From: a virus
Lineage: Duplodnaviria > Heunggongvirae > Uroviricota > Caudoviricetes
Virus record (IMG/VR): IMGVR_UViG_2617270960_000012
DNA: 4,848 nt
Reading direction: 5' to 3' (one strand)
Shown here: piece by piece, positions 1 through 4,848 of the stretch
Numbering within the stretch: the stretch's first letter is position 1
Layout: every line of letters starts with the position of its first letter
Notes under the pieces: model-generated
What the model was told of the DNA's origin: nothing
The model's database searches: none
What the model saw: the letters and a program-made list of their open reading frames with translations, nothing else
Position numbers and translations under genes: made by a program

Positions 1-504
1 TTATTGATAGTGTTTTATGTTCAGATAATGCCCGATGATTTTGTCATGCAGCTCCACCGATTTTGAGAACGACAGCGACTTCCGTCCCAGCCGTGCCAGG
101 TGCTGCCTCAGATTCAGGTTATGCCGCTCAATTCGCTGCGTATATCGCTTGCTGATTACGTGCAGCTTTCCCTTCAGGCGGGATTCATACAGCGGCCAGC
201 CATCCGTCATCCATATCACCACGTCAAAGGGTGACAGCAGGCTCATAAGACGCCCCAGCGTCGCCATAGTGCGTTCACCGAATACGTGCGCAACAACCGT
301 CTTCCGGAGCCTGTCATACGCGTAAAACAGCCAGCGCTGGCGCGATTTAGCCCCGACATAGCCCCACTGTTCGTCCATTTCCGCGCAGACGATGACGTCA
401 CTGCCCGGCTGTATGCGCGAGGTTACCGACTGCGGCCTGAGTTTTTTAAGTGACGTAAAATCATGTTGAGGCCAACGCCCATAATGCGGGCTGTTGCCCG
501 GCAT
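1..504 (-). CDS. insB: IS1 transposase InsB frame; normally expressed as an InsAB' fusion by -1 ribosomal frameshift
   Basis: The 167-aa ORF from the track matches IS1 InsB along its length (…[18 protein letters not shown]…[39 protein letters not shown]…). The stop codon is at the window edge (1-3 reverse complement). Confidence 0.9.
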
Positions 505-696
505 CCAACGCCATTCATGGCCATATCAATGATTTTCTGGTGCGTACCGGGTTGAGAAGCGGTGTAAGAACTGCAGTTGCCATGTTTTACGGCAGTGAGA
601 GCAGAGATAGCGCTGATGTCCGGCGATGCTTTTGCCGTTACGCACCACCCCGTCAGTAGCTGAACAGGAGGGACAGCTGATAGAAACAGAAGCCAC
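423..696 (-). pseudogene. insA: IS1 insA with an internal frameshift; the N-terminal zinc-finger part and the C-terminal HTH part are in different frames
   Basis: Translated from GTG at 696 (minus), the frame reads [43 protein letters not shown], then shifts and stops at 526-528. The InsA C-terminus ([33 protein letters not shown]…LKNSGRSR) appears only in another frame, fused to unrelated upstream sequence in the 423..725 track ORF. Compared with canonical IS1 as I recall it, this is a 2-bp deletion between window positions 568 and 569. The IS1 length in the window (751 + ~15) is also 2 bp short of 768. Confidence 0.6.
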
Positions 697-751
697 TGGA
701 GCACCTCAAAAACACCATCATACACTAAATCAGTAAGTTGGCAGCATCACC

Positions 752-967: not shown

Positions 968-1866
968 GCAATATCGTTGAATTCGTTAAACAGCAAGAGC
1001 AGTTATTCTGCGGAGCATTGACTGAACAGACGGTGACATGGGCTAAGGAAAGCCAGTTTGCAATTCAGTATTTCCAGAAAAATGATTACCTGGCTAAAAC
1101 GGCACTGGCAAATCCAACCAGCGCACAGAACGCCATCATCAATGTTGCGGCGATCGGCATCACCTTAAACCCGGCCAGCAAACTTGCTTATCTAGTTCCG
1201 CGCGACGGCATGGTTTGCCTTGATATCAGCTATATGGGATTACTTCACCTTGCACAGTCGACAGGATCAATTAAGTGGGGGCAATGCAAACTGGTGTACT
1301 CAAACGACACCTATGAATCAAACGGCCTTGATTCAGCACCAACCCACAAATACAACGCATTTGGTGAGCGAGGCTCTATTGTTGGTGGTTATTGCACGGT
1401 TAAAACAGCAGATGGTGACTACCTGACTGAAGAAATGAGTCTGGCAGAAATTAAAGCTGTGGAAGCAACGAGCAAGGCAAAGAATGGACCGTGGAAAACA
1501 TTCTGGGAAGAGATGGCGCGTAAAACAATAGTTAAACGCGCCAGCAAATACTGGCCTAAAGCCCAGCGACTGGATAATGCCATTCACCTGCTTAACGAAG
1601 ATGAAGGTATGCATCAGGAACCAGTTATGCCGCACAAATCAGAGGAAGATATACGCGAAGATGAACGGAAACGCCAGCAGGAAATAATGGATAAAGCACA
1701 ACTTCTTTGTGATGAAATGGCTCAAGCAGAAAACATGGATGATTTGAAGCGATATTTTGCAGAAGCATATCGCCTGACATCTGGAATGAAATTGCAGCAG
1801 AACGTACAAGCCATTTACGCAGAATGCAAAGCGAAACTGGAGGTTGCCAGTGAGCAAACTGTATGA
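964..1866 (+). CDS. recT: RecT-family single-strand annealing recombinase
   Basis: 300-aa ORF with GGAGA 6 nt upstream of ATG 964. The motif NGPWKTFWEEMARKTIVKRASKYWP matches the conserved core of E. coli RecT (NGPW..HWEEMAKKTAIRRLFKYLP). It carries a long charged C-terminal tail. Confidence 0.88.
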   Translation: MSNIVEFVKQQEQLFCGALTEQTVTWAKESQFAIQYFQKNDYLAKTALANPTSAQNAIINVAAIGITLNPASKLAYLVPRDGMVCLDISYMGLLHLAQSTGSIKWGQCKLVYSNDTYESNGLDSAPTHKYNAFGERGSIVGGYCTVKTADGDYLTEEMSLAEIKAVEATSKAKNGPWKTFWEEMARKTIVKRASKYWPKAQRLDNAIHLLNEDEGMHQEPVMPHKSEEDIREDERKRQQEIMDKAQLLCDEMAQAENMDDLKRYFAEAYRLTSGMKLQQNVQAIYAECKAKLEVASEQTV

Positions 1867-2343: not shown

Positions 2344-2658
2344 ATGAAAAAGACTCCATGGGAGAAATGGGAAGTCGATTTCTTGCGCGAAGTAGCGGCG
2401 ACAATGCCAGTTGAAGTTATCGCTGAAAAACTGGAAAGGACTGAAAAAGCAGTAATAGCAAAAGCAACAAGGATTGGCGCTGACATTGTTAGCCGACTTC
2501 GTGGAAGACGCTGGACAAGAGCCGAAGTATCACTTTTCGGTAAGTTCTCCGCAGAAGAAATAGCAATTGCAACCTGCCGCTCAATTTATTCAGTGAGAGC
2601 TATGCGATACAAGCTAAAAAAACTCGATGAAGAGAGAACAGGCATACGAATAAATTAA
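2344..2658 (+). CDS. Small protein with two tandem helix-turn-helix-like repeats (sigma-70 region 4 / Myb-like pattern); putative DNA-binding regulator
   Basis: 104-aa ORF with an internal duplication: [12 protein letters not shown]…[24 protein letters not shown] and [39 protein letters not shown]. No obvious Shine-Dalgarno before ATG 2344. Confidence 0.55.
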
Positions 2659-2674
2659 CAAAGAGGAATTTACC

Positions 2675-2842
2675 ATGAGAGGACTTGCATACAATCCCGG
2701 CATTCTTCCGGCAGAAATGATTATTCGCCAACGCGTAAAGCCAATGCCATCGAGAGAAGAATTGCTTAAGAGAAAGAGTTTCGGTTCTGTTAATGACAAC
2801 AAATATCTGAATGCGATGTGGCGCAAAGGAGGCAACCAGTGA
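2675..2842 (+). CDS. Small basic hypothetical protein (55 aa), not in the supplied ORF track
   Basis: ATG 2675 follows AAGAGGAA (2661-2668). Translation is [55 protein letters not shown]. Its TGA stop (2840-2842) overlaps the GTG start of the next gene (GTGA). Confidence 0.5.
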
Positions 2843-2843
2843 G
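2827..2843 (+). repeat. Copy 1 of an exact 17-bp direct repeat aggaggcaaccagtgag (Shine-Dalgarno plus GTG start module)
   Basis: Identical 17-mer at 2827-2843 and 3068-3084. It extends to 20 bp with one mismatch (t/c at 2844/3085). Confidence 0.85.
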
Positions 2844-3093
2844 TAATTCAGCACGACTACAGCTTGGTTTTTCACCGCTATCAAAAACTATCATGCTGGC
2901 AAAAATGCGCGATGTTGAAGGTGGACGTATGCGCGTTGGCAATGATCCAGGTCGTGATGTTACCAATGAGGCTGCTCAATTGGTGTGGCGACTGGTCATG
3001 GCTGAAGGTGGTGAGATCGCGTGGGAGCTGGATGATGGTTCTCGCATGGTGTTGAAGGCAGAAAAGCAGGAGGCAACCAGTGAGCAAGATTGA
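2839..3093 (+). CDS. Hypothetical small protein (84 aa)
   Basis: GTG 2839 follows AGGAGG (2827-2832, 6-nt spacer). Same frame as the track ORF 2818..3093. The gene body is flanked by two copies of an exact 17-bp repeat. It overlaps the next gene's start by 14 nt. Confidence 0.55.
3068..3084 (+). repeat. Copy 2 of the exact 17-bp direct repeat aggaggcaaccagtgag
   Basis: See copy 1. Spacing between copies is 241 bp. Each copy contains the ribosome-binding site and GTG start of the gene that follows it. Confidence 0.85.
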
Positions 3094-3793
3094 TTATCAG
3101 GCACTGCGTGCTAAGGCAGAAAAAGCAACGTGTGGTGTATGGTCGCTCGAATATGGAGAGAGCCGATTTGATGGTGATGATGCGCTAATTCATCGTGAAG
3201 TTGCTGGATATATTCCCATTTGCAGAATTGAAGGAGCGCATCCAGAAAGCGGTTTCGATGAAGATTTCCAAATGGAACAGCAGGCCAATGCTGAATTCAT
3301 CGCAGCAGCCAGTCCAGCTACCGTGCTGGCACTACTGGATGAACGGGAAAGAAACCAGCAATACATCAAACGCCGCGACCAGGAGAACGAGGATATTGCG
3401 CTTACGGTTGGGAGGCTGCGCGTTGAGCTGGAAGCAGCAAAAAAGCGCATAGCAGAACTGAAAGCCGAACCTGTAAGCCAAACTTACAAGTTGAACCAGC
3501 TATCGGGCAATTCTCCGGTAACTCCGGATGGTTGGATAAGCTGTAGTGAGCGGATGCCTGTAATTGGCGAGCTAAATTGGAGAACTAGTTTTCCTTTACT
3601 GGTTACGTGTGAGATCGGCGTTATACCTGCTTATTACGGCTTTGTGAGAGTTAATGGGAATAAGCATTATGGTTTTATGGAGAGTCTTAAATATGGAGAT
3701 GATAGCGGCAACCATCCTCAAACTAATGAATATGACCTGATTAGCAATGTAACCCACTGGAGCCGCTGCCAGAACCGCCGAGCAGGATGGTGA
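3080..3793 (+). CDS. Ea22-like prophage protein with a C-terminal DUF551-like domain
   Basis: 237-aa ORF starting at GTG 3080 after AGGAGG. The N-terminus [16 protein letters not shown] resembles Ead/Ea22-like proteins of enterobacterial prophages. A central coiled-coil-like stretch (RLRVELEAAKKRIAELKA) is followed by a C-terminus (GWISCSERMPV…NVTHW…) resembling DUF551. Confidence 0.65.
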   Translation: MSKIDYQALRAKAEKATCGVWSLEYGESRFDGDDALIHREVAGYIPICRIEGAHPESGFDEDFQMEQQANAEFIAAASPATVLALLDERERNQQYIKRRDQENEDIALTVGRLRVELEAAKKRIAELKAEPVSQTYKLNQLSGNSPVTPDGWISCSERMPVIGELNWRTSFPLLVTCEIGVIPAYYGFVRVNGNKHYGFMESLKYGDDSGNHPQTNEYDLISNVTHWSRCQNRRAGW

Positions 3794-3883: not shown

Positions 3884-3946
3884 TGACCAAGGCAGCAGCA
3901 GAGCGCAACTAACAATCCTCGCACTGACGGGGATTTCTTTTATCTG

Positions 3947-3971
3947 AACTCGCTACGGCGAGTTTTGTTTT
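3947..3971 (+). terminator. Intrinsic (Rho-independent) terminator-like hairpin
   Basis: Perfect 7-bp stem aactcgc / gcgagtt with loop tacg, followed by the T-rich run ttgtttt. Confidence 0.5.
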
Positions 3972-3984
3972 ATGGAGATGATAA

Positions 3985-4152
3985 ATGCACTTCCGAGTCA
4001 CAGGTGAATGGAATGGAGAACCATTCAACAGAGTTATCGAAGCAGAGAACATCAACGACTGCTATGACCACTGGATGATATGGGCGCAGATAGCACATGC
4101 AGACGTAACCAATATTCGAATTGAAGAACTGAAAGAACACCAAGCCGCCTGA
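3985..4152 (+). CDS. Small acidic hypothetical protein (55 aa)
   Basis: ATG 3985 follows GGAGA (3974-3978, 6-nt spacer). Translation is MHFRVTGEWNGEPFNRVIEAENINDCYDHWMIWAQIAHADVTNIRIEELKEHQAA. Terminator-like hairpins lie on both sides. Confidence 0.55.
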   Translation: MHFRVTGEWNGEPFNRVIEAENINDCYDHWMIWAQIAHADVTNIRIEELKEHQAA

Positions 4153-4167
4153 TGGCGGTTTTTTATT
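4142..4167 (+). terminator. Intrinsic terminator-like hairpin overlapping the stop codon of the 55-aa gene
   Basis: Stem aagccgcc / ggcggttt (8 bp with one G-U pair), loop tgat, followed by ttttatt. Confidence 0.45.
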
Positions 4168-4178
4168 GGAGACAAGAA

Positions 4179-4523: not shown

Positions 4524-4647
4524 CCACAGCCTCACACTCGATGAGGCCTGTTCATTTCTCAAGATATCCAGACCTACCATTGCTGCATCAATGCGGCTTT
4601 TTATTGCCTGATTTGCAGGTTCGATTCCATATTCGGAGATAGCACTC

Positions 4648-4848
4648 ATGCAACACGAACTACAACCTGATTCACTGGTTGATTTGAAATTCATCATGGC
4701 TGATACTGGCTTCGGTAAGACCTTCATCTATGACCGGATTAAGTCCGGCGACCTGCCTAAAGCCAAAGTTATCCACGGACGAGCAAGATGGTTATATCGT
4801 GACCATTGTGAATTCAAAAATAAGCTCTTAAGCCGCGCCAATGGGTAA
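4648..4848 (+). CDS. AlpA/Xis-family small helix-turn-helix protein; excisionase or transcriptional regulator
   Basis: 66-aa ORF with GGAGA 9 nt upstream. The core …FIMADTGFGKTFIYDRIKSGDLPKAKVIHGRARWLYRDHCEF… fits the AlpA/excisionase pattern (…TG.S.STIYR.I..G.FP.P..LG.R...W…). The stop codon is the last 3 bases of the window. Confidence 0.78.
   Translation: MQHELQPDSLVDLKFIMADTGFGKTFIYDRIKSGDLPKAKVIHGRARWLYRDHCEFKNKLLSRANG

Follow-up and report, generated by a model that had tools for sequence, protein, structure and literature searches.

A 55-codon reading frame in an IS1-truncated Escherichia coli prophage remnant is, by its sequence, a conserved small phage gene of the DUF2737 family

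The open reading frame (ORF) at positions 2675–2842 of the window, by which we mean the whole stretch of 4,848 nucleotides of phage DNA analysed here, is on sequence grounds a real and conserved small phage gene of the DUF2737 family that has already been annotated in public records. Taken as a whole, the observations are in our judgement best explained, and with good confidence, by a genuine protein-coding gene of the family that comprises P22 ORF-56, Sf6 gene 23 and ES18 gp44, and we are close to certain that it is a real translated gene in intact phages. What the protein does can be addressed more tentatively, and we compare below a role in binding a host protein with a role in nucleic-acid binding and with the reading that the conserved stretch serves mainly at the nucleotide level. 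The ORF and its immediate surroundings contain the following features.

2344..2658, plus strand: upstream gene of 104 aa, PHROG 11492; one of four alternative upstream families
2661..2668, plus strand: Shine-Dalgarno-like AAGAGGAA of moderate strength (sequence reading; duplex energy −6.0 kcal/mol)
2675..2842, plus strand: 55-aa CDS of the DUF2737 family, homologue of P22 ORF-56 and Sf6 gp23 (Pfam PF10930, PHROG 1117, RefSeq WP_001214442.1, dN/dS 0.24)
2839..3093, plus strand: downstream gene, DUF7446 (Pfam PF24233, E 1.3e-18; RefSeq CDS); one of at least nine families

An in-frame stop codon lies at 2651–2653 and the ATG at 2675 is the first start codon 3′ of it; from there the frame stays open for 55 codons and closes with the TGA at 2840–2842. 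A spacer of six nucleotides, TTTACC, separates AAGAGGAA from the ATG, the encoded protein is basic (pI 10.66, net charge +6.5), and the stop codon overlaps the GTG of the next gene (2839–2841) as GTGA at 2839–2842. The 55-aa basic ORF with its ATG, its six-nucleotide spacer and its GTGA overlap, as put forward in a preliminary description of this DNA, is thus present in every part on sequence reading, and the ORF also fills the otherwise empty gap separating the genes at 2344–2658 and 2839–3093, as had been stated there. The same description had attributed the absence of the ORF from its list of reading frames to a length cutoff, which is probably correct because the default minimum for listing an ORF, 60 aa, is longer than 55 aa; in the present analysis reading frames were listed from a minimum of 30 aa. 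It had also counted the Shine-Dalgarno (SD) sequence among the best ribosome-binding sites of the window, and in this point it was mistaken. The best pairing of the ORF's SD with the 16S 3′ end amounts to −6.0 kcal/mol and ranks only eighth among the ten gene starts in the window, whereas the three SD sites that lie within the junction motifs described below reach −10.0 to −11.6 kcal/mol. Since the SD is only moderate and about 12% of the start-like codons on the plus strand have an upstream pairing that is equal or better, it does not on its own constitute convincing evidence for a gene. Among the related loci, GAGGAATTTACC-ATG is common to two different upstream gene contexts; the ORF's own SD and ATG travel with the gene.

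The assignment to DUF2737 is carried by profile matches that cover nearly the entire protein. The ORF matches Pfam PF10930 (DUF2737) at E 1.8e-29 with 101.8 bits, the gathering cut-off being 25 bits, in a near full-length alignment of residues 1–51 to model positions 1–51 of 53. PHROG 1117, a profile of 54 positions, is matched by residues 1–53 at E 1.4e-37, and PHROG 4684, the virulent-phage branch, by residues 18–51 at E 5.5e-17; a search of the ORF against NCBIfam returned no match. RefSeq holds a CDS at identical coordinates under the name ‘DUF2737 family protein’ (WP_001214442.1). In a protein-level search of phage genomes, homologues were found in 643 phage records, and P22, Sf6, ES18, Oslo (gp39) and mEp213 annotate them at the same position: the erf/abc record J02471 of P22, the phage in which the family was originally noticed, lists the homologue as ‘ORF-56; putative’ straight after abc-2, the ES18 record describes gp44 as ‘similar to phage P22 orf 56’ and the Sf6 record describes gene 23 as ‘similar to phage HK620 gene HKaI protein’. 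Protein identity to the ORF is 98% for mEp213, 93% for Sf6 gene 23, 92% for HK022, where the gene is unannotated, 91% for CP-1639, 73% for P22 and 69% for ES18 gp44, and many Stx-converting phages also match. When compared to P22 ORF-56, Sf6 gene 23, ES18 gp44 and Oslo gp39, the gene in the window shares the full-length profile match, the stand-alone size (55 aa in a family of 53–58 aa), the invariant core, the position beyond the recombination/anti-RecBCD genes in the early-left operon and the overlap of four nucleotides with the following gene. Nothing essential differs from these relatives. The upstream neighbour is here a 104-aa protein after RecT–Gp157 and elsewhere Abc2, and the host element is here a decayed E. 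coli prophage remnant of the KplE1 type, whereas theirs is a functional phage.

The conservation of the ORF was examined in 88 related loci, made up of 80 IMG/VR contigs, annotated phages and the window itself. The first 52 codons are open in 87 of these 88 loci. Across 51 close unique sequences, 12, 11 and 31 variable sites fall on codon positions 1, 2 and 3, respectively, and the pooled Nei-Gojobori dN/dS is 0.24 in the frame of the ORF and 0.39 to 2.6 in the other five frames; comparison of the ORF with its P22 homologue gives a dS of 1.19 and a dN of 0.24. These substitutions show the protein sequence to be under purifying selection. The preliminary description had taken the ORF for a real small protein-coding gene, had proposed conservation and dN/dS across relatives as a check, and had named as contrary outcomes that relatives preserve no homologous ORF or tolerate frame-disrupting indels. 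Its view is borne out: a homologous ORF is preserved in 87 of the 88 loci, dN/dS is the lowest of the six frames, the Pfam match stands at E 1.8e-29 and the indel variants seen are in-frame duplications. The sole disrupted copy among the 88 carries a nonsense change at codon 3 (GGA to TGA; L046:3001–3009). Three homologues from outside the window (P0004, P0010 and P0169) contain tandem duplications of 12–30 residues that span the PMPSR segment, and as these are in-frame, the length changes seen preserve the reading frame.

Within the protein, conservation concentrates in one segment.

2738..2818, plus strand: codons 22–48, a core of 27 aa conserved family-wide, virulent phages included (alignments A1–A3)

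The N-terminal third of DUF2737 is variable, the invariant core extends roughly from K22 to M47 and the tail beyond residue 50 varies again. In alignment A3 the residues P23, R27, E28, E29, R33, S35, F36, S38, N42 and L45 are invariant, and the window protein has all of them; at position 34 it has a lysine in place of an asparagine that is conserved in at least 90% of the sequences, though not invariant. Homologues from Guernseyvirinae align to residues 23–51 only, and those from Cronobacter also end in KGG-type tails. The net charge of the family has a median of +5.6 and goes down to about −1. AlphaFold2, supplied with an alignment of 21 sequences, predicts three short helices (residues 12–20, 27–32 and 43–52) and no long hydrophobic segment, with a low model confidence (pLDDT 66.8, pTM 0.27) that may simply reflect the shallow alignment. 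Short helices in a low-confidence model would fit a peptide that folds on binding, and we expect the product to be a small soluble protein of about 6 kDa that would by itself adopt hardly any stable fold. When the DUF2737 profile was compared with solved structures, the sole match was to the C-terminal segment of the P22 tail protein gp4 (PDB 5gai_K / 4v4k_k), not significant at E 0.66 and treated as chance; there, PMPSR...NSFPSVNE from residues 11–43 (window 2705–2803) is set against PYPSR...NSFPNLNE, a likeness that is probably coincidental.

The family is narrowly distributed. An exhaustive HMMER scan of 1.84 billion cluster representatives returned only 59 clusters (50% identity) at E ≤ 0.001, and the named members come from genomes of E. 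coli, Salmonella, Shigella and Cronobacter and from phages of E. coli, Salmonella, Shigella, Serratia and Enterobacter. Among viral contigs, matches number more than 500; the ORF is encoded at 95% protein identity or above in the 80 loci retrieved from these. The query also matched 1460 of 5426 complete E. coli genomes, most of them over the ORF's part, so that DNA matching the ORF is present in roughly a quarter of complete E. coli genomes.

In the lambdoid loci, the DUF2737 gene is always the first gene beyond the recombination/anti-RecBCD module of the early-left (pL) operon, whichever recombinase this module contains. It follows abc2 in P22, mEp213 and Oslo, it follows a P2-Orf83-like gene that is itself located 3′ of abc2 in Sf6 and ES18, and it comes after RecT, Gp157 and a short gene in the window and in Cronobacter prophages. 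The flanks are mosaic: across the related loci, the upstream gene belongs to one of four families and the downstream gene to one of at least nine unrelated families, DUF7446 being the downstream gene in 16 loci including the window. In the virulent Guernseyvirinae, the DUF2737 gene is one of a series of small genes that overlap one another and are located between the lysis genes and the terminase, and in a third phage type (L094/L095) it takes the second place in an operon that extends into a helicase. In all three of these mutually unrelated phage types it occurs in early or small-gene clusters, and its behaviour is that of a small and self-contained accessory gene which enterobacterial phages carry and which is not tied to lysogeny. 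As to the 104-aa protein encoded upstream at 2344–2658, it resembles the middle part of PHROG 323 (‘transcriptional regulator, D5-like’), and its match to a Pfam winged-helix family is below threshold.

The literature retrieved for DUF2737, PF10930, PHROG 1117, hkaI and P22 ORF-56 consisted of annotation tables only, with no paper on function. Two phage accessory-gene screens give no functional report of the family, one of them listing it in a supplementary table under ‘no known function’ only, and the anti-defence and defence models of PADLOC-DB gave no family match at E ≤ 0.01. Some guidance comes from the operon itself. Kil, cIII and Abc2, which are neighbours in the pL operon, act by binding a host protein, according to phage record notes and established knowledge. 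The DUF2737 protein may do likewise and would then bind a conserved enterobacterial host factor through its invariant core. We place such a host-protein-binding mechanism, within which anti-defence is one possibility, a little short of an even chance. The reading draws on the analogy with Kil, cIII and Abc2, on the small size, the weak predicted fold and the invariant core of the protein, and on the restriction of the family to phages of one bacterial family. Lambda Kil, cIII and Gam and P22 Abc2 resemble it in occupying the same operon, in their small size, in belonging to accessory early-gene clusters and in occurring in enterobacterial phages only, but they have no sequence or family relationship with DUF2737, so that the likeness would be one of context and working principle. 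Two observations speak against host binding, namely that the basic charge (median +5.6) fits nucleic-acid binding equally and that a gene which in lambdoid phages is always found next to recombination genes could have its role in recombination. A more specific proposal, in which DUF2737 is a host-takeover or counter-defence peptide whose core of about 27 aa docks on one conserved enterobacterial protein, seems possible and rather doubtful. Were this target a protein of DNA repair, recombination or immunity, as it could be, the retention of the gene beside an anti-RecBCD module would be accounted for.

The main rival is a nucleic-acid-binding or recombination-accessory role, in which a small basic protein would aid the adjacent recombination module (RecT/Erf, Gp157, Abc2), for instance by binding single-stranded DNA or DNA ends. 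The pI of 10.7 of the window protein and the median net charge of +5.6 in the family would suit such a role, as would the position of the gene, which directly follows recombination/anti-RecBCD genes in every lambdoid locus examined. However, the net charge of some members of the family is close to zero or weakly negative (−0.4 to +0.6), and the residues under the strongest conservation, among them the acidic or polar E28, E29, S35 and N42, are not those of the basic tail. In addition, no recombinase is found among the adjacent genes in Guernseyvirinae or in the L094/L095 phage type, and the protein has no match to any known DNA-binding family. We regard this role as unlikely, and the binding of a host protein by the invariant core as the preferred, if tentative, reading of what the protein does.

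The 3′ end of the ORF lies in a sequence that recurs at other gene junctions of the window.

1838..1857, plus strand: second copy of the junction motif, at the RecT/Gp157 junction (GTG 1850)
2827..2846, plus strand: junction motif AGGAGGCAACCAGTGAGTAA (repeat family D1), comprising the SD and GTG of the next gene and the KGGNQ tail and stop codon of the ORF
3068..3087, plus strand: third copy of the junction motif, at the DUF7446/Ead-Ea22 junction (GTG 3080)

Within these copies, GGAGGnnnCCAGTGAG occurs three times in the window (1839–1854, 2828–2843 and 3069–3084) and in none of 200 shuffles, and the last five codons of the ORF, AAA GGA GGC AAC CAG, encode their KGGNQ from within the motif. 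In 549 kb of related loci, GGAGGnnnCCAGTGA has 83 copies on the coding strand and none on the other strand, and for 81 of these copies the GTG is the start codon of an ORF of 40 codons or more. The genes upstream read the motif in different frames, as KGGNQ followed by the stop codon in the ORF and as QEATSEQD followed by the stop codon at the end of DUF7446, and therefore it is conserved at the nucleotide level. The 3′ end of the ORF doubles as the SD and the start codon of whichever gene follows. ‘Boundary sequences’ have been invoked to account for lambdoid mosaicism (PMC3233612). The junction motif resembles these in that it is a short conserved junction with three copies in the window and at least nine unrelated families beyond it, and it may promote recombination or may simply be a good translation start. 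The GGAGGnnnCCAGTGAG junction is not among the bsq features annotated in Sf6; there, bsq3 corresponds to the beginning of the Ead/Ea22 coding sequence, just 3′ of a junction of this kind, and matches window positions 3081–3111 at 29 of 31 bases.

GTG 2839 is also where RefSeq starts the next gene (locus 6540 = window 2839), and the match to the PHROG 1578 profile sets in four residues later. The overlap of stop and start codon by four nucleotides, sometimes as ATGA in place of GTGA, is kept in 78 of 82 loci. The ORF had previously been described as translationally coupled to this gene. The overlap geometry speaks for such a coupling; a dependence on translation of the ORF does not follow from it, since the DUF7446 gene possesses its own AGGAGG site, with −11.6 kcal/mol the strongest SD of the window, and the junction RNA is predicted to be less structured than shuffled sequences (z +1.76), the SD being unpaired in both the minimum-energy and the centroid structure. 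With a strong SD of its own and an open junction RNA, initiation on the DUF7446 gene could equally be independent of upstream translation. Because the downstream partner is interchangeable between at least nine families, the overlap implies no functional pairing of DUF2737 with DUF7446, and the coupling is best taken as generic operon architecture and not as a partnership with DUF7446. An Rfam search of the window gave no match at E ≤ 1, and the RNA around the start and the stop of the ORF folds no better than shuffled sequence.

These features of the junction could also be read as a nucleotide-level device, that is, a homology patch for the exchange of modules combined with a translated leader that feeds the next gene, the peptide itself being of little function. 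This would account for four upstream and at least nine downstream families around a nearly identical ORF, for a 3′ end that is a recurrent junction motif, for the overlap kept in 78 of 82 loci and for the more than 500 matching viral contigs with 80 fetched loci at or above 95% protein identity. We nevertheless consider it highly improbable. The variable sites are spread 12/11/31 over the codon positions with a dN/dS of 0.24, and relative to P22 the synonymous sites are near saturation and yet the protein is 73% identical. Furthermore, the core is kept in virulent phages whose DNA has diverged too far to act as such a patch, and the next gene has its own strong and unstructured SD. The pattern of substitution thus makes a role purely as a nucleotide-level linker or leader unlikely. 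That the ORF is not a gene at all, and is either a chance reading frame or opposite a true coding sequence in the antisense ORFs at 2600–2884 (94 aa) or 2614–2835 (73 aa), can practically be dismissed, because even though both antisense ORFs exceed 55 aa and the SD of the ORF by itself is statistically unremarkable, it is the plus frame that matches Pfam and PHROG at E 1e-29 and 1e-37 and has the lowest dN/dS, and the antisense ORFs have no Pfam or PHROG match and are interrupted in 18 of 59 unique relatives.

The window represents a defective remnant of the KplE1/CPS-53 type, in which the early-left operon is cut by an insertion element.

1..751, minus strand: IS1 with insA/insB, terminal repeat ending at 751 (sequence reading, RefSeq region)

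Over the 851 bases around the ORF, the window and the chromosome of E. coli strain 1297KP show 100% identity, and the annotated region of that chromosome is a short prophage remnant that occupies the argW tRNA-Arg site and is flanked by yfdC and dsdC. The order of its genes is intS, an EpsG-family gene, a hypothetical gene, IS1, a truncated gene, RecT, siphovirus Gp157, the 104-aa hypothetical gene, DUF2737, DUF7446, an Ead/Ea22-like gene, two hypothetical genes and torI. Since the remnant is defective and cut by IS1, there is no lysogen to induce in this element. As IS1 has removed the upstream part of the operon and a consensus promoter scan found none immediately upstream of the DUF2737 gene, the copy in the window may be silent.

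Several further observations concern this remnant. The ORF at 785–967 matches only positions 43–102 of PHROG 3486, and RefSeq marks its N-terminus as missing. At 3080–3793 the window contains an intact ORF of 237 aa that consists of an Ead/Ea22 N-terminal domain and a C-terminal DUF551; at this locus RefSeq has only a partial Ead/Ea22 pseudogene, corresponding to window 3062–3457. Terminator-like hairpins with T runs are located in the distal operon at 3914–3965, 4142–4168 and 4582–4606, two of them following the Ead/Ea22 gene in tandem, another the 55-aa gene at 3985–4152 and a further one preceding torI; the scan found 12 terminator-like sites where 4.5 were expected. The last gene, at 4648–4848, is torI, which codes for the KplE1 excisionase and inhibitor of TorR, and the window ends exactly at its stop codon. 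The gene intS occupies the opposite end of the remnant, which is the arrangement that an integrated prophage of the KplE1 type should show.

The case of this ORF illustrates that reasoning from the nucleotide sequence, based on SD, spacing and overlap, can bring to light a real gene that a 60-aa cut-off would miss. The gene is already catalogued. The interest that remains attaches less to this locus than to the DUF2737 family, which occurs in phages as well studied as P22, Sf6 and HK022. A target for its invariant core, if found, would add a host-modulating protein to the classical pL operon.
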